The notes under the pieces: model-generated
What the model saw: only the letters and a program-made list of their open reading frames with translations
What the model was told of the DNA's origin: nothing
The model's database searches: none
Translations under genes and position numbers: made by a program
NCBI GenBank assembly: GCA_945902805.1
Contig: CAMDMZ010000016.1
Coordinates: forward strand, 27,420 to 91,419
Origin: Propionivibrio dicarboxylicus
GTDB lineage: Bacteria; Pseudomonadota; Gammaproteobacteria; Burkholderiales; Rhodocyclaceae
Reading direction: 5' to 3'
Length of the DNA: 64,000 bases
Shown: positions 8,913 to 42,787 of the stretch, piece by piece
Position numbering within the stretch: position 1 is the stretch's first letter
Layout: every line of letters begins with the position of its first letter

Positions 8913-10468
8913 AGGTCGGCCCCGCTATAGGAAAGATTGAACGACTTGTTGATGAGCGGGAAGTCGGGAACGATGTCGTTCATCACCGCATGTTCCAGCG
9001 CCGGCCAGCATTGCCAGGAGGGGTCGTGCGGATGCACGCGCGCCAGCTTGCCAACGGCATCGAATTCCAGGCCGACCAGCACTTCGCCACGCCAGCCTTC
9101 AATGACACCAAGGCCGGCACCCCCAGCCACCGGCGTGATCGTCGTCAGAATTTCGCCGGCCGGCATGCCGACCGCCATGGCGCGCAACAAGCGCAAGGAC
9201 TCGAAGATTTCGTCGAAACGCACCGCCACACGCGCCGCCACGTCGCCGCGCTCATCGGTAACCGGCCGCACGCCCAGCGCGGCATAGGGCGGTGGCGGCG
9301 TGTAATCCTGACGATATACCCGGCCATCGAGAATCATGCCGGTGGCGCGGGCGGCCATGCCGGTGAGCGAGAGTTCGTGGGCAAGGTCGGTATTGATGAT
9401 GCCGGTGGTGAGGAAGCGGTCTTGCAGACCGGCGTGATTGTCGTAGATGGCGCGCAGTTCGCTGACCTCGCGTGCGAATAGTTCGCATTGCTCGACCATG
9501 CGCGCCAGCGCTTCCGGCGCCAAATCGTGGCTGACGCCACCGGGCACGATGCGATCCATCATGAAGCGGTGGCCGAACAGATCGGCATTCAGGCGCAACC
9601 AGTCTTCCTTTAGACGCATGAATTGCGTCAGACCAAAGGCAAACGCGGCATCGTTGCCGAGCGCGCCGAGGTCGCCGAGATGATTGGCGACGCGCTCGCG
9701 CTCCAGCATCACGGCACGCAGCATGAGCGCGCGTGGTGATGGTGTAGCGCCGCACGCCGCTTCGACGGCCGCCGCATACGCCCAGGCATAAGCACAAGTG
9801 GAATCGCCGGAAATCCGCCCGATCAATTTCGCACCGGTCAAAAAGTCGGTGCTGGCGAGACGGTGCTCAACGCCCTTGTGCTGGTAACCGAGGCGTTGTT
9901 CCAGGCGCAACACGCGTTCTCCAACCACCGAGAAGCGGAAATGTCCGGGCTCAATGATACCGGCGTGGATCGGGCCGACCGGAATCTCGTGCGCGCCCTC
10001 TCCGCCGACCTTAACGAAGTCGTAGTCAGTGGGGGCATTGGTAAAGTCGGCATGATCGCCCGCATCATGGCGCAGCGGAAACCAATCGGCCGGCCAGCCG
10101 CCGTGGCGCAGCCAGGGGCGCTGGTCGGGACCATCGTGCCGGATGTCGAGCAAATCGAACGTGGCGCGCTGCATTCGGTTCGCGGCCGGGAAGATTCCCG
10201 ACAGATCGGGACACGTCGGATTTTCGGCAGGCAGATCGAGGCGCAACCACTGCCAGCCCTCGGTCAGCGCAAATACGCAGTGCAGGCGGAATCCGCCAGC
10301 TCGCTCGCGCTCATCGCTACCCCAAAGAGCCGACAATCGTCCCTGATGGCGGTGGACGGAAATGGCGTAGCGCAGCAGGTCTTCGCCATCAACCGCGCGG
10401 CCGTGCCAAACCGGCGCGCCCACCCCGGGCTGGGGAGTGAATTCGATGGGTTCGGCGTGGAAGCGCAT
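8909..10468 (-). CDS. NuoC-NuoD/HycE-type large subunit homologue lacking the Ni-Fe cysteine ligands
   Basis: Start set at ATG 10468 (MRFHAEPIEF), 2 nt after the upstream stop; the 628-aa track ORF is an extension. Shows GPIHAGIIEPGHFRF and LGYQHKGVEH. Reads GRISGDST where R-x-C-G-x-C is expected, and SFNLSYSGADL* where D-P-C-x-x-C is expected. Confidence 0.85.
   Translation of the reverse strand: MRFHAEPIEFTPQPGVGAPVWHGRAVDGEDLLRYAISVHRHQGRLSALWGSDERERAGGFRLHCVFALTEGWQWLRLDLPAENPTCPDLSGIFPAANRMQRATFDLLDIRHDGPDQRPWLRHGGWPADWFPLRHDAGDHADFTNAPTDYDFVKVGGEGAHEIPVGPIHAGIIEPGHFRFSVVGERVLRLEQRLGYQHKGVEHRLASTDFLTGAKLIGRISGDSTCAYAWAYAAAVEAACGATPSPRALMLRAVMLERERVANHLGDLGALGNDAAFAFGLTQFMRLKEDWLRLNADLFGHRFMMDRIVPGGVSHDLAPEALARMVEQCELFAREVSELRAIYDNHAGLQDRFLTTGIINTDLAHELSLTGMAARATGMILDGRVYRQDYTPPPPYAALGVRPVTDERGDVAARVAVRFDEIFESLRLLRAMAVGMPAGEILTTITPVAGGAGLGVIEGWRGEVLVGLEFDAVGKLARVHPHDPSWQCWPALEHAVMNDIVPDFPLINKSFNLSYSGADL
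9840..9866 (-). repeat. dispersed repeat copy R3, inside the large-subunit CDS
   Basis: AAAAAGTCGGTGCTGGCGAGACGGTGC on the plus strand (2 mismatches). Read in the gene sense as H-R-L-A-S-T-D-F-L. Confidence 0.75.
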
Positions 10469-10470
10469 CG

Positions 10471-11928
10471 CTAGCCCAGCATGCGCGCGGCTTCCTGGAA
10501 CCAGCGCGTCAGGTAAGGGGGAATGTAGAGCCCGAGCATCAGCACAATGGCCAGATGCAGGAACACTGGCGTGATGGCGGGTGCATGAGGCAAGCGCTTT
10601 GCCTCCGTCTCGCCGAACACCATGGGTTGCACCTTGCCGAATATTGCCGCGAAGGCGACGCCAAGCGCCAACAGCAGGAACGGCGTGGCCCAGGGATGAT
10701 GTTTCATGGCATGCGTCAGGATCATGAACTCGCTGGCGAAAACGCCGAATGGCGGCATGCCGAGAATCGCCAGCGTGCCCAGCATCAGGCCCCAACCGAT
10801 CAAGGGATTGACGTGTATCAGGCCGCGGATATCGTCCATCATTTGGGTGCCGGTTTTCTGCGTGGCATGGCCGACCGCGAAGAAGATGGCCGACTTGGTC
10901 AGCGAGTGCATAGTCATGTGCAGCAGGCCAGCGAAGTTGGCCACCGCACCGCCCATGCCGAAAGCGAAAGTGATCAGGCCCATGTGCTCGATGGAGGAAT
11001 AGGCAAACATGCGCTTGACGTCGCGCTGTCGCGAAAGAAAGAAGGCCGCCAGCAGCAGAGTGAACAAACCGAAGCCCATCATCAGGTTGCCAGCAAAGGC
11101 GCCCTCGATGGCACCGTCAGCGAGCACCTTGCAGCGCAGGATGGCGTACAGGGCGACATTGAGCAACAAACCAGAAAGCACGGCAGAAACCGGCGTCGGC
11201 CCCTCGGCGTGGGCGTCGGGCAGCCAGTTGTGCAGCGGCGCCAGGCCGACCTTGGTGCCATAGCCGACGAACAGAAAAATGAACGCCAGCGCCATGATAT
11301 TCGGCTCAAGAAAGGCCTTGACGTTGACCAGGTGCGTCCACAGCAAGGCGTTACCACTTTCACCCAGAATGCGTTCGGCGGCGAAGTACAGCAGGATGGT
11401 GCCGAACAGCGCCTGAGCGATACCAACGCCACAGAGGATGAAGTATTTCCAGGCCGCTTCCAGGCTGGCTGGCGTGCGGTAGAGCGATACCAATAGTACG
11501 GTGGTGAGTGTCGCCGCCTCCATCGCCACCCACAGAATGCCCATGTTGTTGGTGGTGAGCGCCACCAGCATGGTGAACATGAAGAGCTGGTACATGCTCT
11601 TGTAGAGCCGCAGGCGTGGAATGGTAAGGCGGCCGTGCGCGGCCTCGTTCTTCATGTAGGGGCCGGAAAAGATGCTGGTGGTGAGGCCGACAAACGCAGT
11701 CAAGGCGACAAAGAACACGTTGAGTGAATCGATGAAAAACTGCTCGCCAAAGGCAAAACGCGGGCCATCGGTAATGATGCTGATGGTCAGCCACACGGCG
11801 GCAATAAAGGTGCCGCCACTGGCAATGATGTTGAGATGAGGCGCCCAGTCGCGTTCGCCAAACACTGTCAGCAAGGCACCGCTGACGAGGGGAATGGCGA
11901 GCAGGATAACGAAGATATCGAACGTCAT
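10471..11928 (-). CDS. HyfF/NuoN-like antiporter-type membrane subunit
   Basis: 485-aa polytopic protein of the proton-conducting NuoM/N/Mrp family (WLPDAHAEGPTPVSA). ATGA overlap with the upstream gene. Confidence 0.8.
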   Translation of the reverse strand: MTFDIFVILLAIPLVSGALLTVFGERDWAPHLNIIASGGTFIAAVWLTISIITDGPRFAFGEQFFIDSLNVFFVALTAFVGLTTSIFSGPYMKNEAAHGRLTIPRLRLYKSMYQLFMFTMLVALTTNNMGILWVAMEAATLTTVLLVSLYRTPASLEAAWKYFILCGVGIAQALFGTILLYFAAERILGESGNALLWTHLVNVKAFLEPNIMALAFIFLFVGYGTKVGLAPLHNWLPDAHAEGPTPVSAVLSGLLLNVALYAILRCKVLADGAIEGAFAGNLMMGFGLFTLLLAAFFLSRQRDVKRMFAYSSIEHMGLITFAFGMGGAVANFAGLLHMTMHSLTKSAIFFAVGHATQKTGTQMMDDIRGLIHVNPLIGWGLMLGTLAILGMPPFGVFASEFMILTHAMKHHPWATPFLLLALGVAFAAIFGKVQPMVFGETEAKRLPHAPAITPVFLHLAIVLMLGLYIPPYLTRWFQEAARMLG

Positions 11929-12596
11929 CAGTTGTCCTTGAGGCGTTCCATGTGGTGGATGTCCAGGCTGTCGAACTGGTCGCGAATCTGGAAGAAGAAC
12001 ACACCGAGAATGAGCGCGCCGACCAGAACGTCCAGTGCGATTCCGAGTTCAACGACCATCGGCATGCCGTAAGTGGCGCTGGTGGCGGCGAGGAACAGAC
12101 CATTTTCCATCGACAGGAAGCCCACCACCTGGGAAATCGCCTTACGCCGCGTAATCATCATCAGGAAGGCGAGCATCACCACGGCCAGCGCAATACCCAA
12201 TGTGCCGCGCGTGATGGTGTGCGAAAGCTGCGAGATCGGCAAGGCGACATTGAAAGCAATGATGACCAGGCCGATGCCCACCAGCATGGTGGTCGGAATA
12301 TTGATCAGTGCCTCGACCTCGCCCTTGATTTGCAGGCGATGCATCAGCCGGTTGAGGATCCACGGTAGTAACAAGGCCTTCAACAGGAGCGTTAGCCCGG
12401 CCGACCAGTACAGGTGCGATTGGCCGGTGGTCACCGCCACCACGAGCGTGGATAGAAACAGCATGAAACCTTGCAGGGCAAACAGGTTGATGAGTTGCAT
12501 CACACGCCGTTGCGCCAGCATGGCGAAGGTCAGCAGCAGAATCACAGATGCGCATAAGTTGATGAGTTGCGCAGTGAGCGGGATAGTGGCGCTCAT
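11928..12596 (-). CDS. HyfE-like small membrane subunit
   Basis: 222-aa hydrophobic protein in the HyfE position. ATGA overlaps at both ends. Confidence 0.7.
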   Translation of the reverse strand: MSATIPLTAQLINLCASVILLLTFAMLAQRRVMQLINLFALQGFMLFLSTLVVAVTTGQSHLYWSAGLTLLLKALLLPWILNRLMHRLQIKGEVEALINIPTTMLVGIGLVIIAFNVALPISQLSHTITRGTLGIALAVVMLAFLMMITRRKAISQVVGFLSMENGLFLAATSATYGMPMVVELGIALDVLVGALILGVFFFQIRDQFDSLDIHHMERLKDN

Positions 12597-13549
12597 GCTT
12601 TCACCTCAAGCAGCAATCTGACCAGCAAGCCGAGAACAGCGAGTAGGAACGCGGTGCCGAGATACTCCGGGGCGCGGAAAATGCGCAGCTTGGCATTGAC
12701 CGTTTCGAGCAGAGCCAACAGGAAGCCACCCACCAGCAGCTTCAACACCAGCAGCGGAATTGCTGCCACCAGCGCCATGAAATTGTCGCGTTCGGCGATG
12801 CCCCAGGGCAGAAACAGAGCTAGCCCAAGACAGGAGTACGCATAGAGCTTGAGGCAGGCCGCCCATTCAATCAGCGCGAGATGGCGCCCTGAATATTCGA
12901 GGATCATGGCCTCGTGGATCATTGTCAGCTCAAGATGGGTGGCGGGGTTATCCACGGGCACGCGGGCATTTTCGGCGAAGGCGACGAAGGTGAAGGCGAT
13001 TCCGGCGAAGGCGAGACTGGGATAAATGATGAAGTCACGATGCGCAAGCGTCTCGACGATGGTCGCCACCGAGGTCGATTGAGCGATCATCGCCACGGTA
13101 AAGATGACCATCAGCAGCGCCGGTTCGGCGAGGAAGCCGATCAGCATTTCACGCCTGCCGCCGAGAGTGCCGAACGAGGTGCCGATATCCATTGCCGCCA
13201 AGGAAATGAATACCCGCGCTAGACCGAAGACACCGACCAGCGCCAACGCGTCCGCCGCCGGCGCCAGCGGCAGGTCGGTCGACAAGGTGGGAATGATGGC
13301 GCAGGCCAGCACCATGCAGCCGAAGACGACGAAAGGTGCAAAGCGAAACAGCGGTGATGCCGTTTCAGCCAGCACCACATCTTTGTTGAAAAGCTTGCGC
13401 AGCATGAAGTATGGCTGCCACAAGGGCGGCGCGGAACGACTTTGCAGCCAGGCCCGACACATGCCCAGCCAGCCCAACAGCAGCGGCGCCAGTACCAGCG
13501 CCAGAGCAATGGCGAAAGCTTGGCCGATCAAACCGGAAATACTGATCAC
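12593..13549 (-). CDS. HyfC/HycD/NuoH-like membrane subunit
   Basis: Start set at GTG 13549 (VISISGLIGQAFAIALAL...), overlapping the upstream TGA (GTGA). The 604-aa track ORF is an extension into the upstream gene. Confidence 0.75.
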   Translation of the reverse strand: MISISGLIGQAFAIALALVLAPLLLGWLGMCRAWLQSRSAPPLWQPYFMLRKLFNKDVVLAETASPLFRFAPFVVFGCMVLACAIIPTLSTDLPLAPAADALALVGVFGLARVFISLAAMDIGTSFGTLGGRREMLIGFLAEPALLMVIFTVAMIAQSTSVATIVETLAHRDFIIYPSLAFAGIAFTFVAFAENARVPVDNPATHLELTMIHEAMILEYSGRHLALIEWAACLKLYAYSCLGLALFLPWGIAERDNFMALVAAIPLLVLKLLVGGFLLALLETVNAKLRIFRAPEYLGTAFLLAVLGLLVRLLLEVKA

Positions 13550-15564
13550 GGTCGCGCCACCAACAGCAAGAGCAGCAGCGTGATGAAGCTGTACATCAGA
13601 TAGACCGCAATGCGACCGCCCTGCAAGGTGGTGATGCGCATCGAAAGCCAGGCGGCCAGGCGCGCAATTGGCAGATAAAGCCAATGCCAGAAATGATCCT
13701 CGACTTGAACGCTGTAATACGGTTCGCGATCGCGGGCAGTCGGTAAGTGGCGCTGCATACGGAACATCGGCTCGAAGATGCGGCGTATCGGCTGGCTGAA
13801 ACCTTCGGCCGTATCCTGCGCGCGCGGCCCTTGAAAATGGTACCCGCAATCCCACGCCGCTGAGCGTCGCCCACGACCATGGTAAAGGTGATGGACCAGC
13901 CAGCGCCCGAGCCAAACCGAGAGGACGATGGTCACCAGAAAGATAACCGACTCGTAACTGGCTCGTTCCGGCGAGATCGGCGCCAGCATCCACCAACCGT
14001 GGTCGCGCACATGTTCGGACAGCCCAGCGCCCAACAGCTGGCGGGTGGCCGCATCGATGCGCAGGATGACGGTTGCCGGCATGATGCCGAGCAACACCGT
14101 GATCAGGGCCAGCCAGACCAGTCCGGCCTTTTCCCAAACCCCGGCATCGTGGGCGTCCTTGAGCGAATCTTCGCGCATCTGACCAAGAAAGATGATGCCG
14201 TAGAACTTGACCATGGCGAAGCCGGCCAGCGCCGCGACCAGCGCCACTACAGCGGCGGCGACGGGAACGACCATGTTGAGCCAGGCATGCGGCAAACCCG
14301 GCGAAAAGAGAAAGCTCTGCAGCAACAGCCATTCGGACACAAAGCCGGAAAGTGGTGGCAAACCGGCACTGGCGATTACGCCGACCAAGGCCAGCCAGGC
14401 CACCCAAGGCATACGGTGAATCAAACCACCGAGTTTGCCCAGGCTACGTTCCTTGGTGGCATGCAACACCGAACCCGTGCAAAGGAAGAGCAGGCTTTTG
14501 AATCCGGCGTGGGCAAGGCAATGGTAGAAGACGGCGGTCAAGGCCAGCGCAGCCAGAGCCTCCATGCGGTAACTATGGAAGATCAGCGCCAGGCCAATAC
14601 CGATCGCCAGCAAGCCGATGTTTTCGATGGACGAATAGGCGAGCAGACGCTTCATGTCGGATTGCACGGTGGAATACAGCACACCGAACAGCGCGGTCGC
14701 CAGCCCGATCGCCAGCGCCACCACGCCCCACCACCAAATGGGTGTGCCAACCAGATCGAAGCTAACGCGCAGCAAGCCATAAATGGCGGTCTTCAGCATC
14801 ACGCCGCTCATCAACGCAGACACGGGCGACGGTGCCGCCGGATGCGCTTCTGGCAGCCAGACATGCAGCGGCAATAAACCGGCCTTGGCACCAAATCCCA
14901 CCAGCGCCAGCAAATAGGCGGCCGAGGACCAGAAGGGCGAAAGCTGCTGCGCCCGCATACCGGCGAAACTGTAGTCGCCACTGCCCCCGGCACCCCCCGT
15001 CATCACACCAAACGACAGCAAGATCGCAATCGCGCCAATATGGGCGATCAGCAGGTACAAGAATCCGGCGCGACGGATGGTCTCGTGACGATGATCGGTC
15101 GTCACCAGAAAGAAAGAAGACAAAGCCATGGTTTCCCAGGCCACCATGAACGCGTAGGCATCATCGGCCAGCAACACCAGCAACATACTGGCGAGAAAGA
15201 TGTGATATTCGAAACACAACAGACCCGGCGCGGTGCCTTCGCCCTGCCGAAAATAACCAGCAGCAAAGATCGAAATGCCGGCCGAGACAAAACCTAGCAG
15301 CGTCACGAAGATGGCGGAAAGGTTGTCGAGCCGCAGATGGAAAGGCAGATCGGGCAGGCCAATAACCAACACCGCAGTCTGCGACGTGGCACCGAGCGAA
15401 GCAAGGCCGACGATGCCCGCCAACACGCTGACCAGGGCACCCAGCGGAAACAGTGTCTTGGCGATGAAGCGGGTTTTGCGCGGCGCCATAAGCCCGGCCA
15501 GACCGAGAATCGCCCAGACACAGGCGGCAATCAGCAGGGTATCGATAGCGAGCAATGATGGCAT
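13546..15564 (-). CDS. HyfB/NuoL-like antiporter-type membrane subunit
   Basis: 672-aa polytopic protein with NuoL/Mrp motifs (LPLHVWLPEAHPAAPSPVSALMSG). Confidence 0.85.
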   Translation of the reverse strand: MPSLLAIDTLLIAACVWAILGLAGLMAPRKTRFIAKTLFPLGALVSVLAGIVGLASLGATSQTAVLVIGLPDLPFHLRLDNLSAIFVTLLGFVSAGISIFAAGYFRQGEGTAPGLLCFEYHIFLASMLLVLLADDAYAFMVAWETMALSSFFLVTTDHRHETIRRAGFLYLLIAHIGAIAILLSFGVMTGGAGGSGDYSFAGMRAQQLSPFWSSAAYLLALVGFGAKAGLLPLHVWLPEAHPAAPSPVSALMSGVMLKTAIYGLLRVSFDLVGTPIWWWGVVALAIGLATALFGVLYSTVQSDMKRLLAYSSIENIGLLAIGIGLALIFHSYRMEALAALALTAVFYHCLAHAGFKSLLFLCTGSVLHATKERSLGKLGGLIHRMPWVAWLALVGVIASAGLPPLSGFVSEWLLLQSFLFSPGLPHAWLNMVVPVAAAVVALVAALAGFAMVKFYGIIFLGQMREDSLKDAHDAGVWEKAGLVWLALITVLLGIMPATVILRIDAATRQLLGAGLSEHVRDHGWWMLAPISPERASYESVIFLVTIVLSVWLGRWLVHHLYHGRGRRSAAWDCGYHFQGPRAQDTAEGFSQPIRRIFEPMFRMQRHLPTARDREPYYSVQVEDHFWHWLYLPIARLAAWLSMRITTLQGGRIAVYLMYSFITLLLLLLVARP

Positions 15565-15612
15565 GGGTATCGCGAAGTACCGGGGGATCGGGGATCGTCC
15601 CAGTGCAGGCGT

Positions 15613-16680
15613 TCAGGAACCGGTTTTGGTCTTCGCGTTGGCCTTGACGTTGACGCTGTTCGCCGCCACAGAAACCCTGTTGCGGCCCGATTCCTTCGAG
15701 CGATAGAGCGCACCATCGGCTCGTTCGATAAGCTGCGCCGTGGTTTCTCCCGGAACAAAGCCAGCAACACCAATTGATATGGTGAGTTGCGCCAGTTCCT
15801 GGTTATTGTCGGTGCGGCGAATGCGGCTGGTTTCGACACTTTGCCGAATTTTTTCGGCGACACAAAGTGCGCCCTGAATCGCGGTGTAGGGCAAAAGAAT
15901 GACGAACTCCTCGCCACCGTAGCGCGCCGCCGTATCAATACCTTTGACGTTCTTCTTGAGAATCTGCCCCAGCGCCCGGATCACCTTGTCGCCGAACATG
16001 TGACCGTAGCTGTCATTGATGCGTTTGAAGTGATCAATGTCCGCCATCAGCAAACAGGGGCCGATCGTATCCGGGGTCAGCGCAGCCAGACATTCGTTGA
16101 TGGCAAGGTCAAAGCCGCGCCGGTTCGACAATCCAGTCAGCGCATCCACCAACGCATCTTCCCTGGCGCGCTCGACCTCATGGCGTAAGCGTTCAATCTC
16201 GTTCTGGCTTTCGTCGAGACGCGTCTTCAGAGTGCTGATCGCGCCTTGCATGTCGCGCGTATTGCCCAGCACCTCATCCACGTGCAGGCACGCTTCATCC
16301 TTTAACTCGGGGTGTGCCAGGCCGCCAGACCATTTCTCCAGCGAGTCACCGAATCGATTGGCCTGATCGCCGGCCGTCGCGGCAGACTGCGAAATATCGG
16401 CCAGGATTTCCTGGAATCCGGCGCTGATCCGGGTTGCTGAATCCTCGTCGAGTTGAGCTACGTACTGCTGAAACAGTTGGTGGGTCTGTGCATCATCAAG
16501 GCGCGCATTATTCTGGGTCAGTGCGTCCATGGCCAACTTGAGTGGCTTGTTGATCCCGGCTACGTACTCGTACCAGATCGCAAAGCTGATCGGATGCACA
16601 CCGGCAGCTTGTCTGGTCATCAAGGGGAGTGCCAAACGGAAATATTCACCGCATTGCTCTCGGCTATGCTGATATTTCAT
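15613..16680 (-). CDS. cytoplasmic diguanylate cyclase (GGDEF)
   Basis: 355 aa: N-terminal sensory and coiled-coil region, GGDEF domain with RYGGEEF. Ends 48 nt upstream of the HyfB-like start on the same strand. Confidence 0.85.
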   Translation of the reverse strand: MKYQHSREQCGEYFRLALPLMTRQAAGVHPISFAIWYEYVAGINKPLKLAMDALTQNNARLDDAQTHQLFQQYVAQLDEDSATRISAGFQEILADISQSAATAGDQANRFGDSLEKWSGGLAHPELKDEACLHVDEVLGNTRDMQGAISTLKTRLDESQNEIERLRHEVERAREDALVDALTGLSNRRGFDLAINECLAALTPDTIGPCLLMADIDHFKRINDSYGHMFGDKVIRALGQILKKNVKGIDTAARYGGEEFVILLPYTAIQGALCVAEKIRQSVETSRIRRTDNNQELAQLTISIGVAGFVPGETTAQLIERADGALYRSKESGRNRVSVAANSVNVKANAKTKTGS

Positions 16681-16987
16681 GTCGAACCGTCACGTTAAGA
16701 CTTACACCGCAAATATAGGAACTAAATGGTCGCAATCACCACGTTGGAGTACGCGTTGATTTGAATCTCCGGGCGAAAAGCCACTCCGAAAATGCAACAG
16801 GATTTTGGATTGTAGCTGCCTTTGGAGACATTGCTACCGGACACTTTGTCGATTTCTGTGCACCGACGATGGCTTCTTGGCCCTGCGAAACAGCGTTTTA
16901 GTCGAAATGTAAGCAATCCGCGTGAAAGTCGTCAAAATTGGACCAACCAGTCGTCGCTGCGGCTGACCAACAACGCCAGGAGTGTTC

Positions 16988-19144
16988 ATGTCGATGCGTA
17001 AATTGTTGCTGCTACTGATCTTTGTCCTCGTCGGCACTGCCTATGTGGCCTTTGACCTCGGCCAGTATCTTTCCCTGGCGGGGCTGAAAGCACAGCAATC
17101 CGCCATCGAATCCTATCGCCTCGCCAATCCCCTCTTGGCGGTCGTGATCTATTGCCTGATCTACGTAATGGTCACCGCACTCTCGCTCCCCGGCGCGGCG
17201 CTGATGACGCTGGCCGGGGGCGCGATATTCGGTTTTTGGTGGGGAACGCTGATCGTCTCGTTTGCTTCTTCGATTGGCGCCGCGCTGGCTTTTCTCGCTT
17301 CGCGCTTTCTGTTGCGCGATTGGGTCACGGCGCGCTTCGGTGAGCGTTTGCGCGCCATCGATGACGGTGTGCAGCGCGAAGGCGCCTTCTATCTCTTCAC
17401 CCTGCGCCTGGTCCCCGTGTTTCCCTTTTTCCTGGTGAATCTGCTGCTCGGCCTTACGGCGATGAAGGCGACCACGTTTTACTGGGTCAGCCAGATTGGG
17501 ATGCTGGCCGGCACTGCGGTGTACGTGAATGCCGGAACACAATTGGGCGGGATTGAATCCTTGTCCGGCATCGTCTCGCCGGGCTTACTGTTTTCGTTTG
17601 CCTTGTTGGGCGTGTTTCCCCTAGTGGCCAAAAAAATCGTGGCGGCGGTACGCTCCAATCAGATCTATGCCAAATGGCCGAAGCCGCGCCGCTTCGACCG
17701 CAACCTGATTGTCATCGGCGGCGGCAGCGCGGGACTGGTGACGGCGTACATCGCGGCGGCGGTCAAAGCCAAAGTCACGCTGATCGAGAAACACCGCCTT
17801 GGCGGCGATTGCCTGAATACCGGCTGCGTGCCCTCCAAAGCGCTGATTCGCTCTGCCAAGTTCCTGTCGCACCAGCAACGGGCGGAAGAATTCGGAATGC
17901 GCCGTCCCGCCAGCACCGACTTTTCGTTTGCTGAGGTGATGGAGCGGGTGCAGAAGGTGATCAAGACCATCGAGCCGCATGATTCGGTCGAGCGTTATAC
18001 CGCGCTCGGCGTCGATGTCATCGAAGGCACGGCAAAGATCGTCTCGCCGTGGCAGGTCGACGTCACCCGCCACGATGGTGCAACCGAAAGACTATCGACC
18101 CGCAGCATCGTCATCGCAGCGGGCGCAAGGCCCTTCGTGCCACCGATTCCTGGCCTTGAGGAAGTCGGCTATCTGACCTCGGACACCGTGTGGGCATTGC
18201 GCGAATTACCGCGCCGCCTGATCGTCCTCGGTGGCGGACCGATTGGAACCGAACTGACGCAAGCCTTTGCCCGCTTCGGTGCCCAGGTGACGCAAGTGGA
18301 AATGGCAGCGCGGATTTTGATCCGCGAAGACCCGGAGGTATCGAAACTGGTCACCCAACGCTTTCGTGCCGAAGGCATTGCTGTCCTGACGAATCACCGG
18401 GCCAAACAGTTTGTCGTCAACCATGGCGAGAAGATCCTGATCGCCGAGCATGCCGGAAGTGACGTTCGTATTCCCTTTGACGCGGTATTGGTGGCAGTCG
18501 GTCGCGTGGCCAATCTCACCGGCTACGGACTGGAAGGGATCGGCGTCACGGTGTCGCGTACGGTGACCACCAACCCTTTCCTGCAGACCAACTATCCCAA
18601 CATCTATGCCGCCGGGGATGTTGCCGGCCCTTTCCAGTTCACCCACACGGCGGCCCACCAGGCGTGGTATGCCACAGTCAACGCGCTGTTCGATCCGTTC
18701 AAAAAGTTCAAGGCCGATTACTCGGTGATTCCATGGGCGACCTTCGTCGAACCGGAAGTCGCGCGCGTCGGCCTTAACGAGCAGGAAGCCAAAGAGCAAG
18801 GCATTGCCTACGAAGTGAGTCGCTACAACATTGACGATCTTGACCGCGCGATTGCTGATAGCGAAGCGCACGGATTTATCAAGGTGCTGACCGTGCCAGG
18901 TAAGGACCGGATTCTCGGCGTCACCATTGTGGGCGAGCATGCCGGCGACCTGATCGCGGAGTACGTTCTGGCCATGAAACATGGCATCGGTCTGAACAAG
19001 ATACTCGGCACCATCCATATTTATCCGACGCTGGCCGAGGCGAACCAATATGTGGCCGGAGTCTGGAAGAAGGCACATGCGCCGGAACAATTACTGGTCT
19101 GGGTAGGGCGCTTTCATGCCTGGCGGCGCGGCGACGCCACATGA
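16988..19144 (+). CDS. DedA/TVP38-TMEM64 membrane domain fused to a class-I pyridine nucleotide-disulfide oxidoreductase
   Basis: The N-terminal ~230 aa are polytopic (SNARE-associated/DedA type). Then GGGSAGL FAD motif, redox CxxxxC GGDCLNTGCVPSK and a dimerisation domain. No MerA-type C-terminal Cys pair. ATG 16988 preferred (AGGAG 5 nt upstream). Confidence 0.8.
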   Translation: MSMRKLLLLLIFVLVGTAYVAFDLGQYLSLAGLKAQQSAIESYRLANPLLAVVIYCLIYVMVTALSLPGAALMTLAGGAIFGFWWGTLIVSFASSIGAALAFLASRFLLRDWVTARFGERLRAIDDGVQREGAFYLFTLRLVPVFPFFLVNLLLGLTAMKATTFYWVSQIGMLAGTAVYVNAGTQLGGIESLSGIVSPGLLFSFALLGVFPLVAKKIVAAVRSNQIYAKWPKPRRFDRNLIVIGGGSAGLVTAYIAAAVKAKVTLIEKHRLGGDCLNTGCVPSKALIRSAKFLSHQQRAEEFGMRRPASTDFSFAEVMERVQKVIKTIEPHDSVERYTALGVDVIEGTAKIVSPWQVDVTRHDGATERLSTRSIVIAAGARPFVPPIPGLEEVGYLTSDTVWALRELPRRLIVLGGGPIGTELTQAFARFGAQVTQVEMAARILIREDPEVSKLVTQRFRAEGIAVLTNHRAKQFVVNHGEKILIAEHAGSDVRIPFDAVLVAVGRVANLTGYGLEGIGVTVSRTVTTNPFLQTNYPNIYAAGDVAGPFQFTHTAAHQAWYATVNALFDPFKKFKADYSVIPWATFVEPEVARVGLNEQEAKEQGIAYEVSRYNIDDLDRAIADSEAHGFIKVLTVPGKDRILGVTIVGEHAGDLIAEYVLAMKHGIGLNKILGTIHIYPTLAEANQYVAGVWKKAHAPEQLLVWVGRFHAWRRGDAT
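17900..17924 (+). repeat. dispersed repeat copy R4, inside the DedA-reductase CDS
   Basis: CGCCGTCCCGCCAGCACCGACTTTT with no mismatch, translated R-R-P-A-S-T-D-F. Confidence 0.8.
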
Positions 19145-33699: not shown

Positions 33700-36600
33700 A
33701 TGACCGTGAGCGAGAAACCCAAACCAACCATGGGAATCGGTTTGCATCTGGACGTTCGTCTCCGGCCCATGGCAGTGCTCCTTGCAACGGCCGGTTTGCT
33801 TTCGCTCCCGACATTCGCTCAAACCGCCCTGCCCTCAGGTGGCACAGTCAGCGCCGGTTCTGCCACCATCAGCCAGGCGGGCGCCGCGATGCGCATCGAC
33901 CAATCCAGTCAGAAAACCATCATCGACTGGAATAGCTTCAATATCGGCCGCGATGCCGCCGTGCGCTTCAATCAACCGAACTCGTCGGCCATCGCCCTAA
34001 ACCGCGTCGGTGCCGACGGCGGCCGCTCGGTCATCGACGGCCAACTCAGCGCCAATGGCCAGGTCTGGCTACTCAATCCTGGTGGCGCCCTGTTCGGCCC
34101 GTCCGCGCGAATTGAGGTTGGTGGCCTCCTCAGTTCCAGCATGAAGATCGGCAACGATAACTTCTTGAATGGCAACTACCACTTCACTCAGGACGGTGCC
34201 GGCCGCATTGTCAATCAGGGACAACTCAACGCGACCGAGGGTGGCTACATCGCGCTGATGGCCCCGGAAGTGCGTAACGAAGGCGTCATCACTGCACGAC
34301 TTGGTACGGTTGCGCTGGCCAGCGGCAACGAGCTGCGGCTCGACCTCGCCGGCGACCGCCTGATCGAACTCGCCATTGACCAAGCCGCCGTCAATAGTCT
34401 GGTCGAGAACAAACACCTGATCCAGGCCGATGGCGGCGCCGTGCTGATGAGCACCGACGCACTCAACCGCCTAGCGCTGGGCGCCGTCAACAATTCCGGC
34501 ATCGTCCGCGCGCAAACCATTGCCGAACACGACGGCGTGATCCGGTTGCTGGGTGGTACAACGACAGTGTCCGGAACGCTCGATGCCTCGGCGCCGAATG
34601 GTGGCAACGGAGGATTTATCGAAACCTCCGGCCACTCGGTCACGATGGATCCAACTCTGAAGGTCACCACCGCCGCAATGACGGGAAAGACCGGCAACTG
34701 GCTGATTGACCCGGTGGACTACTTGATCGCTCCCTCGGGTGGCGACATTACCGGGTTCGCGTTGTCGAGCAACCTGAACAACACGAACGTGACTATTTCG
34801 ACTGCCGCGCTGGATACGCCCTACGGTGGCGGGTTTGGCGATATTTTTGTCAATGACGCCGTGTCATGGAACTCCGGCAATACCCTGAGCTTGCTAGCGG
34901 AACGAAACATCGAGATCAACAACACGATTACCGGATCAAACCCGGCATCGCAATTCCAAGCCACTGCGCCCGGAATCCTGACGGTGGCGGGCTCTGGCAG
35001 CGTGTCCGCAGGATCCGTCACCTACCGGGCCAACGATATGCAACTGAGTGGCTCCACGAACCACGCGCTTACCACCAACTTCCTGACCGTCGCGCCACAC
35101 ACAGACAGTGGTGGCGTTCAGATTGGCGCTTCAAGTTCACCAGGACTGCTAAACCTCACCCCATCAGAAATTGGTACCTTGCACGCCACCAACATTTCGA
35201 TTGCCACCACGAACGGCGAGATCCGTGTCACGGCAGCACTCAATCCCGAACACATTGCCGCCCAACAAGAATTTGTCCTCAACGGACGCAATATCAACGT
35301 CGATGCGGCGGTAAACGCACCCGGCAAAAACTTGTTGTTGATGTCCCCTGGAACACTCACGGTCTCGGCAGCGGGTAGCGTAAGCGGATCGTCTGTGACG
35401 TACTGGGTGAATGATGCAACACTCGTTGGCCATACCACGGGGAGTTCCACACGAGCTGTACAGTTGGGTCCGAATACGTCGGGACGGAGCATTCGCATTG
35501 ATACCAATTCGGCGGCAGGCGCGCTGAATCTATCTCCGGCAGAGATCGGTACCCTTACGGCCGCCGACTCAAGCGCAGAGGTTCACATTGGCGGCGAGAT
35601 CGGCAACCCTGCCTACGTATCATCGATCACGGTTGCGGCCCCGCTCGCCGCCAGCAATATCAACAGCAACCTTTATCTGATCGCCAACAGCATTGCAGTG
35701 AATTCCTCCATTGACGCATCGTCTGGCGCGGCGCGGCTAGGATTCGTTTCCGGAACTGGTGGTACGACACTCAACGCAGCCGTAACGACGCCAAACGAGA
35801 TTAGCGTCATTCTCGGTAGCGGTGGCGGATTCAACCAAACGACAAATGGCTTGGTGACTGCTCATGTTCTCAAGGCGCGTGGTACCGGTGCGGTCACGTT
35901 AGACGAGAACAACACGGTCGCAGCGGTTGCCGCAAACGTAAGCGGCAGCTTCTGGCTGAACAATGGGATGACACCACTCTCGGTGATCTCCCGTGGGAGT
36001 GCAGAGGGTACGATCAACGGCATCACGGCCAACAATATCGGCCTTGTCACAAGCAATACCCTGACTCTGGATGCGCCGCTCACGGCAACCAGCACTGGCG
36101 CTGTATCGTCCAGCGGTGTCACCGTAACCGACACACTCTGTACCGGTACCTGCGTTCGTCCGCACATTGAGCTCTACGCCCACGATGGGTTCACCAACAA
36201 CGTTGGGGCGAGTGCACTCTCCCTGCCGCCAGGGAAATACTGGATGCTCACCACCGAGAGCCCCGCCGTCACCACCCTCAACGGGCTCCAACCCGGCGCG
36301 ACCTCGTTTGACGCCCAGCGTACCGAAGACGGTGACATGTTGCTGTCCGCCAATAGACTATTCCATTACTTGGGAGCGACATCTGCCACGGTGGAACAAG
36401 TGGTTGCCAGTCAGGAGACGACTACCCCGGACGTCGGGACCACCACGCCAGCTCCAGCCGCTGTGGAACCTGCCGGTGGCACGGGTAGTGGCGGCGCGAC
36501 CCTAAATACCTTCCCGACCTCGGCACCTGTCGTCACCAGCTTGCCCGGAATCACTACCCAGAGCTCTCTTACTCCCAGCCTGATCGTCAATGCATCCCGC

Positions 36601-37542
36601 TCGATGCCCACCCGCGCCGGCATTTTGAACCGTACCGATCTTGCGGCTCTGAATCAGCAGATGCACGACACCCGTACCCAACTGTTTAGCGAAGCACTGC
36701 AGATCCTGGCCAGCAACCCGAAAGCTGCCGATGTCCCGGACTGTGGCGAGGGCGGCTCCGAGGTCTGCATCGTCAAACGTGATCGCGGTGTCGCTGAGTT
36801 CGTTCCCATCGTCAAACGCAAGATCGCCCTGGTGATCGGCAACAACAGCTACCGCTCGCCTATCCCGGAACTGGAAACCGCCATCAATGATGTCACTGCC
36901 ATTGGCGAAGAACTTGGCGCCAGACTTGGCTACGAGGTCAAGGTCGTGCAGGATGCCGGTCGCAAGGAGACCATCGACGCCCTCAACGACCTGATCCGCA
37001 CCACGGGACCCGACGACAGCGTCCTCGTCATGTACGCCGGCCACGGCTACCTCGACGAGAAGACCGGAGCCGGCTACTGGATTCCCACTGACGCGAATGC
37101 CTTCAAACCGGATCAATGGATTTCCAACGACAGCATCGCCCGCGCCCTGAACAACATTCCGGCCAAGCAAGTCATGCTCGTCTCCGATAGTTGCTACTCA
37201 GGCTCGTTGACCAAGGAAGGCAAACAGACCGAGATAGTCGGCATCAGCCGTGACCAGACACTGACCCGGCGTTCCGTACTCGCCATGTCGTCCGGCGGAG
37301 AAGAGCCGGTTTCTGACGAAGGCGTCGATAACCACTCGATCTTTGCCTGGAATTTCCTCCAATCCATCAAGACCATGACCAATGAAACCTCCGGCCAGAA
37401 GCTGCACGCCGTGGTCAAGGAAGCCGTGACCAAAGACTTCCCGCAGGTGCCGCAATACGGCACCGTCGTCTCCGCCGGCCACACCGAAGGCGGCGAGTAT
37501 CTATTGACTCCGAAAGCACCGACGCAGGGGGGAGCACGCTAA
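33700..37542 (+). CDS. two-partner-secretion exoprotein (TpsA) with a C-terminal caspase (peptidase C14) domain
   Basis: N-terminal TPS domain (LPSGGTVSAGSATISQ..., IIDWNSFNIG, ALNRV, GQVWLLNPGGALFG). Long G/S/T/N-rich passenger and a Pro/Thr linker. C-terminus has KIALVIGNNSY, YAGHG (His1115) and VSDSCYSG (Cys1165). Start codon uncertain: ATG 33700 or 33730. Confidence 0.8.
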   Translation: MTVSEKPKPTMGIGLHLDVRLRPMAVLLATAGLLSLPTFAQTALPSGGTVSAGSATISQAGAAMRIDQSSQKTIIDWNSFNIGRDAAVRFNQPNSSAIALNRVGADGGRSVIDGQLSANGQVWLLNPGGALFGPSARIEVGGLLSSSMKIGNDNFLNGNYHFTQDGAGRIVNQGQLNATEGGYIALMAPEVRNEGVITARLGTVALASGNELRLDLAGDRLIELAIDQAAVNSLVENKHLIQADGGAVLMSTDALNRLALGAVNNSGIVRAQTIAEHDGVIRLLGGTTTVSGTLDASAPNGGNGGFIETSGHSVTMDPTLKVTTAAMTGKTGNWLIDPVDYLIAPSGGDITGFALSSNLNNTNVTISTAALDTPYGGGFGDIFVNDAVSWNSGNTLSLLAERNIEINNTITGSNPASQFQATAPGILTVAGSGSVSAGSVTYRANDMQLSGSTNHALTTNFLTVAPHTDSGGVQIGASSSPGLLNLTPSEIGTLHATNISIATTNGEIRVTAALNPEHIAAQQEFVLNGRNINVDAAVNAPGKNLLLMSPGTLTVSAAGSVSGSSVTYWVNDATLVGHTTGSSTRAVQLGPNTSGRSIRIDTNSAAGALNLSPAEIGTLTAADSSAEVHIGGEIGNPAYVSSITVAAPLAASNINSNLYLIANSIAVNSSIDASSGAARLGFVSGTGGTTLNAAVTTPNEISVILGSGGGFNQTTNGLVTAHVLKARGTGAVTLDENNTVAAVAANVSGSFWLNNGMTPLSVISRGSAEGTINGITANNIGLVTSNTLTLDAPLTATSTGAVSSSGVTVTDTLCTGTCVRPHIELYAHDGFTNNVGASALSLPPGKYWMLTTESPAVTTLNGLQPGATSFDAQRTEDGDMLLSANRLFHYLGATSATVEQVVASQETTTPDVGTTTPAPAAVEPAGGTGSGGATLNTFPTSAPVVTSLPGITTQSSLTPSLIVNASRSMPTRAGILNRTDLAALNQQMHDTRTQLFSEALQILASNPKAADVPDCGEGGSEVCIVKRDRGVAEFVPIVKRKIALVIGNNSYRSPIPELETAINDVTAIGEELGARLGYEVKVVQDAGRKETIDALNDLIRTTGPDDSVLVMYAGHGYLDEKTGAGYWIPTDANAFKPDQWISNDSIARALNNIPAKQVMLVSDSCYSGSLTKEGKQTEIVGISRDQTLTRRSVLAMSSGGEEPVSDEGVDNHSIFAWNFLQSIKTMTNETSGQKLHAVVKEAVTKDFPQVPQYGTVVSAGHTEGGEYLLTPKAPTQGGAR

Positions 37543-37578
37543 TGAAAACCGCTCGCCCAATGGAAATTGCCAACCAAG

Positions 37579-37603
37579 CGCCGTCCCGCCAAAGCCGACT
37601 TTT
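37579..37603 (+). repeat. dispersed repeat copy R8
   Basis: CGCCGTCCCGCCAAAGCCGACTTTT in the 71-nt tpsA-tpsB spacer. Confidence 0.75.
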
Positions 37604-37613
37604 AGGATCGACC

Positions 37614-39317
37614 ATGAAACGCACCGTACTCGGCTCTCTTTTCATTGGCTTATCCGCCACCGTCTTTGCCGCCCCGCCCGATGCTGGGTCCCTCCTGCGT
37701 GACGAGATGCGCCGCGACCAGGCACCCGCCCCGCTGATGCCACCCAAGGCTGACGCTGCCGCGGACATCAAGACATCCGCCGACACCGGCCTTAAGATGG
37801 CCATCACCGCCTTCCGCGTGACCGGTCTGACGGCTGTCGCAGATGCGCAAGGATTCCTCGCCGCCCATGCCAACCAGTCGCACAGCATGGAAGGCCTGCA
37901 CCGCGTTGCCGAGAAATTCGAGCAGTGGCTGCGCAGCCGAGGTCTGTTTCTCGCCCGTGCCTATATCCCGCCGCAAGACATCAAGGCCGGCGTCGTGGAG
38001 ATTCGTGTTCTCGAAGGCCGCCTGGAAGGCATCGACATCAAGCGTGCACCGACCACCCGCCTTTCCGACGAATTGCTGCGCGACACCCTCGGCGGTGCGC
38101 TACCGCTCGGTGCGGCACTGGAGCAGGAGCGCCTTGAGCGTGGTCTGCTGCTATTGAACGACCTGCCGGTCGCCAGTGCTCGCGCGGTGCTCACGCCCGG
38201 CAAGGAACTCGGCGGTTCGCGCGTCACCATCGAAGCCGCCCAGGGGCCGGTGATGGGCACGAGTGTCGAGCTGGATAACACGGGCAATCGCTTTACCGGC
38301 GATTGGCGACTCGGTGCCGCGCTTGCCATCAATGATCCGAGCGGACGCGGGGATGCCTGGATCCTGCGTGGCACAGTCAGCGAAGGCAGTAGTTTCCTGC
38401 GTGCCGGTTATACCCTGCCGATCGGTAGCAATGGCTGGCGGATTGGTGCCGGCTTGATTGGTTCGCGTTACAACCTGTGCTGCGAGTCCTCTGTCACGGC
38501 GCTGGATTCGGATGGCCGGGCCACGGCGGTATCGGCCTTTGTCAGTTATCCGGTGCTGCGCACCCGCCTGGCGAATCTGGCACTGTCGGCGACGGCCTCA
38601 AACCGTGATTTCGTCAATCGCGCGCTGGGTGTTACCACCAGCGACAAGAGCAGCAAGAACCTCATACTGGCGGCGACCGGTGATTGGAGCGACATGACCG
38701 GCCTGACCGGTCTCGGGGCTTACACGAGCTATGTGGTGCAATGGACCAACGGCCGCCTAAATCTGGATGGCTGGCAGGCGGACAAGGCGACCGATGCGGT
38801 AACGGCCGGTTCGGCGGGCAGCTTTGGCAAATGGACGGCGCAGGCGAGTCATCTACTGCGGGTGAGCCAGACCTCAGCCGTCTATGCCGGCCTCTCCGGA
38901 CAGATGGCGAACAAGAATCTGGATTCGTCGGAGAAGTTTGTCCTCGGTGGCCCGCAAGGCGTGCGTGCTTACCCGACTGGCGAGGCGAGCGGCGACGAAG
39001 GCTGGTTGCTGAATCTGGAATGGCGCCAGGAGTTGAATAGCGAATGGCGAGTGGTGGGCTTTGTCGATCACGGCAAGATCACGCTGCACAACACGCCATG
39101 GGCAAACTGGAATACCGCGACGCCTAGCCTGTCGAATCGCTACAGCCTCTCCGGCGCAGGTGTCTCGGCAGTGTGGACGCCGATGCCGGGAACGCAGATC
39201 AGCACGACGCTGGCAACACGATTGGGGAACAACCCGGCACGTGATGCGTCGGGCCGTGATGCGGATAACCGCTCGTCGGATTCGCGGGTTTGGGTACAGG
39301 GTAGCGTGGCGTTTTAA
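37614..39317 (+). CDS. TpsB outer-membrane transporter (ShlB/FhaC/HecB family)
   Basis: Start set at ATG 37614, giving signal peptide MKRTVLGSLFIGLSATVFA. POTRA region and beta-barrel, with terminal ...VQGSVAF. Confidence 0.8.
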   Translation: MKRTVLGSLFIGLSATVFAAPPDAGSLLRDEMRRDQAPAPLMPPKADAAADIKTSADTGLKMAITAFRVTGLTAVADAQGFLAAHANQSHSMEGLHRVAEKFEQWLRSRGLFLARAYIPPQDIKAGVVEIRVLEGRLEGIDIKRAPTTRLSDELLRDTLGGALPLGAALEQERLERGLLLLNDLPVASARAVLTPGKELGGSRVTIEAAQGPVMGTSVELDNTGNRFTGDWRLGAALAINDPSGRGDAWILRGTVSEGSSFLRAGYTLPIGSNGWRIGAGLIGSRYNLCCESSVTALDSDGRATAVSAFVSYPVLRTRLANLALSATASNRDFVNRALGVTTSDKSSKNLILAATGDWSDMTGLTGLGAYTSYVVQWTNGRLNLDGWQADKATDAVTAGSAGSFGKWTAQASHLLRVSQTSAVYAGLSGQMANKNLDSSEKFVLGGPQGVRAYPTGEASGDEGWLLNLEWRQELNSEWRVVGFVDHGKITLHNTPWANWNTATPSLSNRYSLSGAGVSAVWTPMPGTQISTTLATRLGNNPARDASGRDADNRSSDSRVWVQGSVAF

Positions 39318-42160: not shown

Positions 42161-42787
42161 TTATTTCTCACGACGGAGTTGTTGTTGGCTATCGGCGATC
42201 GCGCTTTGCAGGTAGGAGCCGTAAAAATCGGCCAGGCGAAAACCGACAATGGATTCAGCCAGATTGGCCCCATCCGGGCCGTGGAACATCACGGTCGGGG
42301 CGAAGCGCGCTTTCATGTCACGTGAAAAGTCGGCGCTGGTGGTACGGCGGCCCTGGAAATCGATCATCGGTGTGGTGCGGTCCATATGCAGTTCGCGAAT
42401 CACGGCCGGGGTCGCTGGGTCACGCGACAGCGGGCCAAGGTGCTCGCGCCGCACGCGTTCGCACCAGTTACAGTCATCGCGACTGTAAAGCACCAGCAGT
42501 GGCACGCCGCGCGCACCGGCCAACTTGGCATCGGCGGCAAGGTCGCGGGCTTCCGTGAGACTGCTTTGAGTCGCCGGGCGGGTCGCCAGATTCGGCGTCT
42601 GCGCCATCGCCGGGGCGGCGGCCAAGGCCGTGGCACATGCTAGAATTCCCAGTGAAATTCGGCCTAAACCTTTGCTGTGCCAAGCTTTCCGGCCGGTTGT
42701 CCGTTTCAAGTTCGTGCTGTACAGCATGCTCTGCCGCGAGGTCTTGCCAATGTGCGCACTCTTATCCATTTCCTGCTCCCTGCCCAA
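42161..42787 (-). CDS. secreted thioredoxin-fold protein (CxxC)
   Basis: Signal-like [15 protein letters not shown], then [17 protein letters not shown] (CNWC). Start uncertain (42787, 42769 or 42727). Confidence 0.6.

Follow-up and report, generated by a model that had tools for sequence, protein, structure and literature searches.

What is a caspase-type protease doing at the end of a protein built for export through the outer membrane? The question is raised by a pair of genes in a 64,000-nt stretch of the Propionivibrio dicarboxylicus assembly GCA_945902805.1 (contig CAMDMZ010000016.1, positions 27,420 to 91,419; hereafter the window, numbered from its first letter). The first gene, tpsA (33700..37542), encodes a protein of 1280 aa, read from the sequence, and the second, tpsB (37542..39317), its putative secretion partner; both genes, and all of their features described below, are on the plus strand. 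An initial annotation, made from the letters and their open reading frames (ORFs), had described the first product as a two-partner secretion (TPS) protein ending in a complete peptidase domain of family C14 (caspase/metacaspase), and had offered two roles for it: an extracellular or surface protease, or a new kind of delivered effector. Domain searches, structure models and a survey of homologues lead to the following answer: tpsA and tpsB are predicted to be a functional type Vb (two-partner) secretion pair, and the product may be, as a tentative first choice, a surface-displayed or released protease specific for Arg/Lys, carried on a stalk and acting in trans.

The sequence details given in the initial annotation are all correct, and the TPS, C14 and TpsB domain matches are far beyond chance. 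The reported N-terminal TPS domain of the 1280-aa protein is borne out: PF05860 matches aa 43-286 (33826..34557) with E=1e-34 (121 bits against a cut-off of 33.5), TIGR01901 matches with E=7e-19 (67.5 bits against 29.1), an adhes_NPXG domain is found among the NCBIfam models, and the motifs ...ALNRV... and LLNPGG lie inside the domain. It is preceded by a putative Sec signal peptide (33700..33819, aa 1-40, with cleavage between ...LLSLPTFA and QTALP), read by eye; the hydrophobic N-termini and AxA-like cleavage sites of both TpsA and TpsB were judged in the same way. GGGGAGA precedes the ATG at 33700, and alternative starts are present at GTG 33706, which is used by the public gene call, and ATG 33730; the public protein (P0001) is 100% identical to TpsA and 1278 aa long. 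By sequence, the nearest solved relatives of the TPS domain are EtpA (1e-49), HxuA (3e-31) and HMW1 (4e-20), and the same three match its fold at a Foldseek probability of 1.0.

Between the TPS domain and the peptidase lie a long stalk and a flexible linker. In an AlphaFold2 (AF2) model of aa 40-1035, built on an input alignment of 22 homologues, the chain is all-beta, with a predicted local distance difference test (pLDDT) score mostly above 90 as far as aa 892; the passenger (aa 287-892, 34558..36375) is modelled as a beta-helix, the top solved folds being full-length EtpA (4e-20) and HxuA (3e-17), followed by the TPS domains of HMW1, HpmA and filamentous haemagglutinin (FHA). No Pfam match was obtained for the passenger, and no repeats were detected in it, either tandem (TRF) or internal (self-BLAST). 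It is followed by a disordered Pro/Thr/Ala/Gly-rich linker of about 85 aa (aa 893-976, 36376..36627), where pLDDT falls to about 30 before a long helix begins. The Pro/Thr-rich character that had been reported for this linker is confirmed by composition: Pro makes up 14% and Thr 25% of aa 905-960, against 4% and 10% in the whole of TpsA. Cysteines total five: C814/C818 in the passenger, C1015/C1023 just ahead of the peptidase, and the catalytic C1165. Few, closely spaced Cys pairs are typical of chains that cross a type V pore unfolded.

The C-terminal cassette has two parts, a helical pre-domain (aa 977-1035, 36628..36804) with the motif LF..AL..L..NP.AAD[IV]P.C-x7-C, whose Cys pair is C1015 (36742-36744) and C1023 (36766-36768), and the peptidase C14 domain itself, a single-chain caspase fold (aa 1036-1280; 36805..37542 with the stop codon). 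PF00656 (Peptidase_C14) matches aa 1040-1253 with E=1.8e-27 (97 bits against a cut-off of 21.4). The initial annotation placed a complete catalytic dyad here, and its codons are confirmed: the YAGHG motif contains His1115 (CAC, 37042-37044) and the SDSCYSG motif Cys1165 (TGC, 37192-37194). Structure prediction, proposed at the same time as a check on the C14 fold, gives a clear result: a model of aa 981-1280, from an input alignment of 97 sequences, has a pLDDT of 90.7 and a predicted template modelling (pTM) score of 0.91, with about 50 aa of helices, H2-30 among them, packed against the alpha/beta C14 core. Its top Foldseek match is the MALT1 paracaspase (E=2.4e-13, probability 1.0), followed by the metacaspases AtMC9, Yca1 and AtMC4 and by Geobacter GSU0716. 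A more specific candidate family, the EACC1-associated caspases (NCBIfam NF047832), was rejected at 64.9 bits, below its cut-off of 140.

Is this domain likely to be an active protease, and of what kind? Two alignments bear on this, one of the C-termini of 38 TPS-fused homologues and one (A1) of 97 sequences, 96 of them stand-alone homologues discussed below. The dyad, together with two predicted acidic S1 residues, D1064 (36889-36891) and D1163 (37186-37188), is invariant in 38 of the 38 TPS-fused proteins and in all 96 stand-alone homologues aligned. YAGHG and DSC[YF]SG are conserved throughout the TPS-fused alignment; GYW[IL]P.DA, SSGGEEPV.D and PQ.PQYG are further strongly conserved motifs of the domain, and 54 of the 300 columns of A1 are invariant. 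D1064 aligns with D365 of MALT1; D1163, at Cys-2 relative to the catalytic residue, forms with C1165 a DSC that aligns with the DSC motif of AtMC4, and established structures place it at the position of D462 in MALT1 and D211 in TbMCA2. In para- and metacaspases the acidic S1 residues (D365/D462 in MALT1, D95/D211 in TbMCA2) give a preference for Arg or Lys. The invariance of the two acidic positions argues for a basic P1 specificity rather than one for Asp, and the domain is predicted to cleave after Arg or Lys. The dyad and the putative basic-P1 pocket of this C14 subfamily appear from these alignments to be under strong purifying selection.

The Cys pair of the pre-domain is nearly as constant. 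C1015/C1023 (C35/C43 of the module) are invariant over the 97 sequences of A1 and present in most TPS-fused homologues, being missing from 8 of 38. In those eight (P0035, P0037, P0057, P0064, P0073, P0094, P0095 and P0119) the helical pre-domain is replaced by a segment of the type ..RVNGRW.FVDDDG.F...LP.., which looks like a beta-sandwich domain.

The second gene encodes a recognizable TpsB of the ShlB/POTRA type. PF08479 (POTRA_2) matches at nt 37803-38018 (E=1.7e-9, 37.9 bits against a cut-off of 24) and PF03865 (ShlB) at nt 38211-39089 (E=1e-21, 78 bits against 22.7), the latter marking the barrel; the putative signal peptide is MKRTVLGSLFIGLSATVFA, and the protein ends in ...GSVAF, with Phe as its last residue. 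Its nearest solved sequence is that of CdiB (6wim, 8e-19); a weak match (E=1e-4) is also seen to structure 2mhj, deposited as "TpsB4 protein", which we take to be the POTRA domain of LepB. The start of the gene may be placed in two ways. Public gene calls use ATG 37542, giving 591 aa and a 1-nt overlap with the tpsA stop, with GGGGGGAG upstream; from ATG 37614 (MKRTVLG...), with AGGA upstream and a typical signal peptide directly following, the product has 567 aa, the longer form having an N-terminal extension of 24 aa. Either start is possible. The description of an FhaC/ShlB-type TpsB beginning 71 nt after tpsA was right as to the protein; the gap exists only from ATG 37614, and disappears with the public start.

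How unusual is this combination? A wider search shows that it is not rare. An exhaustive HMMER scan of 1.84 billion cluster representatives found 2,091 clusters with this C14 subfamily at a cut-off of E<=1e-30, and the family extends over hundreds of genomes. In a search with full-length TpsA, 43 of the best 120 matches have both TPS and C14, with total lengths of 1045-2167 aa and the C14 domain ending 0-4 residues from the C-terminus; among 134 newly retrieved top representatives from the cluster scan, 72 combine an N-terminal TPS domain with a C-terminal C14, 39 are long proteins in which no TPS domain was detectable (mostly N-truncated fragments) and 22 are short. C14 is at the extreme C-terminus in every TPS homologue examined from either set (43 of 43 and 72 of 72). 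Databases already label members of the family automatically, some as "two-partner secretion domain-containing protein" and some as "caspase family protein".

When one genome per species was scanned, at least 564 loci emerged, chiefly in Rhodocyclales and Burkholderiales. Counts of locus types refer to the best 80 of these: about 28 are of the TpsA type, and about 22 of those adjoin a TpsB gene, 9 having it downstream and 13 upstream. Carriers include Accumulibacter, Propionivibrio and Rhodocyclaceae, and among cultured strains Rhodocyclus purpureus DSM 168 and two Pseudoduganella species. The genes flanking tpsA/tpsB differ from genome to genome; this, and the adjacency of TpsB in either order, argue that the two genes are sufficient by themselves. 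A survey of relatives for the same architecture and a conserved neighbour had been suggested in the initial annotation; TPS-C14 proteins proved to be widespread, mostly with TpsB as neighbour, and no further conserved gene emerged. The homologue in Accumulibacter phosphatis UW-1 (54% identity; CP001715.1, 1,291,314-1,295,363) lies in an unrelated neighborhood, where an insertion sequence transposase gene (15130-17343, minus strand) splits the adjacent TpsB in two (L003:14047-18211); this copy of the system is probably not secretion-competent.

Conservation is unevenly distributed along these proteins. Identity to homologues is 62-71% in the TPS domain, 72-78% in the C14 domain and 22-44% in the passenger, whose length varies by more than 800 aa. 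With both ends constant and the stalk variable, the pattern is the reverse of that of polymorphic toxins. Some large proteins that have no TPS domain (P0336, P0350, P0369, P0374 and P0255) likewise terminate in this C14 module; several of them carry the N-terminal LEPRxMFDG typical of giant repeat adhesins, and in one a signal peptide is followed by Sel1-like repeats. On these architectures, the module appears to be a mobile C-terminal cassette. Many TpsA relatives without C14, of the GLUG/YDG type, share instead a C-terminal motif, ..G[IV]RLP.G.. (P0058, P0071, P0080, P0082, P0085, P0093, P0098 and P0108), and in three others without C14 (P0072, P0102 and P0109) the chain finishes with a Cys-x6-12-Cys loop similar to the anchor of HMW1.

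The module also exists alone. With the last 300 aa of TpsA as query, most matches are to short proteins (about 320-390 aa) that share 45-52% identity with it across 96% of its length and consist of a putative Sec signal peptide, the pre-domain (…RHQARTLLYREALEELRKNPAAADVPEC-x-C…) and C14. About 48 of the best 80 loci are of this stand-alone type, in which the C14 gene is part of a conserved operon of four: a 220-aa signal-peptide protein, an outer membrane (OM) barrel, a lipoprotein alpha/beta-hydrolase and the C14 protein, whose gene overlaps that of the hydrolase by 4 nt (examples are L007:5372-9020, L010:5439-8972 and L011:433-3966, with the rest of the roughly 48 among L012-L091). The barrel has 355-365 aa, with an autotransporter-type beta-domain and the C-terminus ...NINIRF. 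The operon appears to be uncharacterised. Since TpsB stands beside the fused form and a barrel beside the stand-alone form, the gene for the module always has that of an OM barrel as a neighbour. Neighbour-joining places the stand-alone proteins in a single clade within a diversity of TPS-fused lineages, and several genomes encode both types, for example Rhodocyclus purpureus DSM 168 (L031, L068), Sulfuritalea bin 87 (L025, L046) and Desulfobulbaceae UBA11700 (L086, L036). Such co-existence suggests that the two forms work in different locations. The C14 subfamily is clearly predicted to be extracytoplasmic. One locus ties the two contexts: in a Rhodocyclaceae metagenome-assembled genome (L018:1394-8918), TpsB and TpsA-C14 are immediately preceded by a homologue of the 220-aa operon protein (E=7e-41), the sole case among about 25 TPS-type loci.

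Where, then, would the protease act? Globular protease and toxin domains are routine cargo of type V pathways, and the few, closely spaced Cys pairs of TpsA suit the passage of an unfolded chain. In the tentatively preferred model, the POTRA domains of TpsB would recognise the TPS domain and the unfolded chain would be threaded through the TpsB barrel; the beta-helix would fold outside the cell, and the C-terminal cassette would follow and fold there too. The product would be an Arg/Lys-specific cysteine endopeptidase, kept on the surface or shed with its long stalk, whose substrates, cut in trans, would be conserved proteins of the matrix, the cell surface or the extracellular space. It would resemble the gingipains in its logic and LepA in its secretion route, rather than a polymorphic contact-dependent toxin. 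The gingipains of Porphyromonas gingivalis are Arg/Lys-specific clan CD proteases combined with adhesin/haemagglutinin domains at the cell surface; the analogy is functional only, as they belong to family C25, use type IX secretion and have another domain order. LepA/LepB of Pseudomonas aeruginosa resembles the window pair in that a protease is carried by a TPS system; LepA itself is, by its description, presumably not a C14 or clan CD enzyme, which sets it apart from TpsA.

Several points weigh against this model. Both secretion and proteolysis are predictions, from sequence and structure models, and the substrate is postulated. A fast-folding alpha/beta domain at the very C-terminus, with an invariant disulfide loop ahead of it, could reach its folded state in the periplasm and stay there unexported. 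By analogy, the TPS subfamily is that of HMW1 and HxuA, whose disulfide-bonded C-terminus stays periplasmic; the stand-alone homologues look periplasmic too, since they have a signal peptide and are encoded beside a barrel and an OM-type lipoprotein hydrolase. Finally, invariance of 54 columns in 300 fits better with a fixed endogenous partner than with a general digestive protease.

These points lead to the strongest alternative, a serious one if on balance rather unlikely: the beta-helix would be exported, but the C14 cassette would fold and form its disulfide in the periplasm, unable to pass TpsB, and the linker would span the pore, leaving the fibre tethered at the surface. The cassette would be the anchor, and perhaps also a built-in protease for maturation or release, cutting the tether or other periplasmic proteins. 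The logic may be likened to that of the HMW1/HxuA anchors, of the FhaB prodomain or of LapG acting on LapA. It has to be taken seriously because HMW1 and HxuA, of the same TPS subfamily, anchor by a C-terminal disulfide loop: according to a review of TPS systems, this bonded C-terminal anchor is kept on the periplasmic side, so that the protein is locked in TpsB. The resemblance extends to other features. EtpA/EtpB of enterotoxigenic Escherichia coli and HxuA/HxuB and HMW1/HMW1B of Haemophilus influenzae have the TPS subfamily, a beta-helical passenger and a ShlB/POTRA TpsB in common with the window pair, and EtpA, HxuA and HMW1 are the closest relatives of its TPS domain in both sequence and fold. 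Like the HMW1/HxuA anchors, TpsA has a Cys pair in its C-terminal region, C1015/C1023, placed just upstream of C14 and invariant in A1; about 85 aa of disordered linker before the cassette would be enough to span the barrel; the three C14-less relatives P0072, P0102 and P0109 close with a terminal Cys loop; and the stand-alone homologues, with a Sec signal only, come from operons that also encode a periplasmic protein, an OM beta-barrel and an alpha/beta-hydrolase that is an OM-type lipoprotein.

There are differences as well. EtpA, HxuA and HMW1 are adhesins or a haem-release protein without an enzyme domain, whereas in TpsA a C14 domain of 245 aa follows the Cys loop; the HMW1/HxuA loop is at the extreme C-terminus, and the TpsA pair sits 257 aa before it, inside the folded C14 module. 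The pre-domain is confidently packed and integral to the C14 globule (pTM 0.91), leaving no free plug, and some TPS-C14 proteins have a beta-rich segment in its place and lack the Cys pair. Globular C-terminal domains are established cargo of many TpsA proteins (ShlA, ExlA, LepA), and the occurrence of fused and stand-alone copies in one genome argues for separate compartments. A bolder form of periplasmic action, which seems doubtful, would unite the two contexts of the module: pre-domain and C14 together would be a periplasmic protease that docks under an OM barrel, the TpsA fibre being tethered via TpsB and freed by LapG-like self-release, while the stand-alone form would act with its barrel, lipoprotein hydrolase and periplasmic partner. 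If true, bacterial caspase homologues would have a function in the envelope that is new for them, and TPS proteins a new way of being anchored and released.

Could the C14 domain instead be a toxin, delivered on contact? The fibre would bind a bacterium or a eukaryotic grazer, and the protease would be translocated and cut intracellular targets. Its place at the very C-terminus is that where polymorphic toxins bear their toxin domain, and CdiB is the closest solved sequence to TpsB. Zhang et al. (2012; PMC3482391) proposed C-terminal caspase-like domains as toxins ("Tox-Caspase") that are, like the window domain, the C-terminal-most part of large secreted proteins; the same work describes caspase-like releasing peptidases, names Imm36 as immunity protein, and gives type II, type VI and type VII secretion systems and the Photorhabdus virulence cassette (PVC) as routes, the type V secretion system not being among those for Tox-Caspase. 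The other evidence points away from delivery. TpsA has no VENN or other pre-toxin motif, no FHA-1/FHA-2 repeats and no DUF637; no immunity-sized gene is found in the ORF list of the window or at the Accumulibacter locus, and the overlap or close spacing of tpsA and tpsB leaves no space for a further ORF between them; the C-terminus is conserved and the passenger variable; and periplasmic-type stand-alone homologues exist. A contact-delivered toxin is thus unlikely, and the suggestion of a new delivered effector is disfavoured by the constant C-terminus, the variable passenger, the lack of an immunity gene and the stand-alone form with its signal peptide.

Two established toxin classes can be set aside. 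The view that the pair is not classical contact-dependent growth inhibition (CDI) is upheld by motif, Pfam and ORF checks alike: VENN, VDNN and LYN motifs are absent from TpsA, no match was obtained to PT-VENN, DUF637 or Fil_haemagg_2 in Pfam, the C-terminus is constant and no immunity gene is present. CdiA/CdiB/CdiI share with the window locus a TPS pair, and CdiB is its nearest solved TpsB, but here FHA repeats, a receptor-binding domain and the immunity gene are missing, and the gene order is A-B. A polymorphic Tox-Caspase was likewise rejected on its constant C-terminal domain and the absence of a small neighbour gene, no profile search having been aimed at Imm36.

Very improbable, finally, is a self-cleaving transamidase that would cut the passenger off and transfer the end so freed to an acceptor in the envelope, binding the fibre to the surface by a covalent link, by analogy with the clan CD enzymes GPI8, legumain and type IX PorU, which work as transpeptidases. 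The high conservation of the domain and its place at the very C-terminus agree with this, but the closest relatives in sequence and fold are hydrolytic para- and metacaspases rather than C13 or C25, and in the stand-alone form there is no passenger that could be joined to an acceptor.

The surface or released protease, if that is what TpsA is, would differ from its structural relatives in location. AtMC4, AtMC9, Yca1, TbMCA2, MALT1 and the orthocaspase MaOC1 share its fold, the YAGHG/DSCxSG contexts and the two S1 Asp residues; they are cytoplasmic and tied to signalling or cell death, whereas the window domain is preceded in its chain by a Sec signal and a TPS domain. It also has a disulfide-bearing pre-domain, is only 17-22% identical to para- and metacaspases, and lacks the p20/p10 linker and the Zn-finger/Pro-rich prodomain of the eukaryotic types. 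Bacterial caspase homologues are usually treated as cytoplasmic cell-death or defence proteases, and an extracytoplasmic subfamily would widen that picture. An anti-phage defence system was considered for the pair itself and rejected: PADLOC gives a weak generic "caspase" match (31.8 bits) and none for TpsB.

In the literature the family appears to have gone unstudied. The initial annotation had held that no TPS-delivered clan CD protease has been functionally described, and none was found in full-text searches of the open-access literature or in reviews of type V secretion; its list of TpsA cargoes as adhesins, haemolysins and CDI toxins is correct as far as it goes, omitting the protease LepA and the haemophore-like HxuA. 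A TPS review names LepA as the sole protease among TpsA proteins, with caspase or CHAT unmentioned, and a review of type V passengers lists as proteases only serine proteases plus LepA. Surveys of prokaryotic caspases do not mention fusions to haemagglutinin or TPS domains in their main text, and in searches of the open-access literature TPS or filamentous haemagglutinin was found together with caspase, metacaspase, orthocaspase or CHAT only in Zhang et al. (2012), where the type V system is not included for Tox-Caspase. Within that literature, the TPS-C14 family is functionally undescribed, yet abundant and automatically annotated. Set against the cargoes known from reviews (adhesins, cytolysins, CDI toxins, HxuA and LepA), an enzyme with the clan CD caspase fold would be a new class. 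Accumulibacter, Propionivibrio and Sulfuritalea are carriers among the Rhodocyclales/Burkholderiales that dominate wastewater and groundwater communities, where remodelling of matrix or flocs, protein scavenging or regulated release of adhesins would be of practical interest. Because cultured strains carry the system, it is directly testable.

The surroundings of the pair in the window are mostly unremarkable. It is flanked by housekeeping genes: those for phosphoenolpyruvate carboxykinase, malic enzyme, a D-Ala-D-Ala carboxypeptidase and an MFS/HlyD efflux pair, and also ppc and hemCDXY, the 3' end of tpsB being only 75 nt from the convergent ppc gene in the ORF list. The GC content of the pair equals that of its flanks, and no tRNA gene, a mark of mobile elements, is present in the window. 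No EtpC- or HMW1C-type glycosyltransferase gene is found among the window ORFs at the locus, nor is there a second copy of the pair or a stand-alone C14 operon elsewhere in the 64 kb. A scan for promoters and terminators gave sites no commoner than in shuffled sequence.

A few other ORFs in the window deserve mention. Between ppc and hemC, an ORF of about 202-208 aa (42161-42787, minus strand) has no Pfam match in the window scan and a faint Thioredoxin_2 match in its public record; its product may be a periplasmic thiol-disulfide oxidoreductase. At 8909-15564 (minus strand), a cluster of membrane subunits of complex-I-like or Mrp-antiporter-like type, with a fused 30-kDa/49-kDa subunit, looks like a group-4 hydrogenase or formate-hydrogenlyase, and coincides with a strong AT skew of 0.18-0.25. 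At 16982-19144 (plus strand) lies a 720-aa fusion of a VTT/DedA-type membrane domain with a pyridine-nucleotide-disulfide oxidoreductase resembling mercuric or glutathione reductase.

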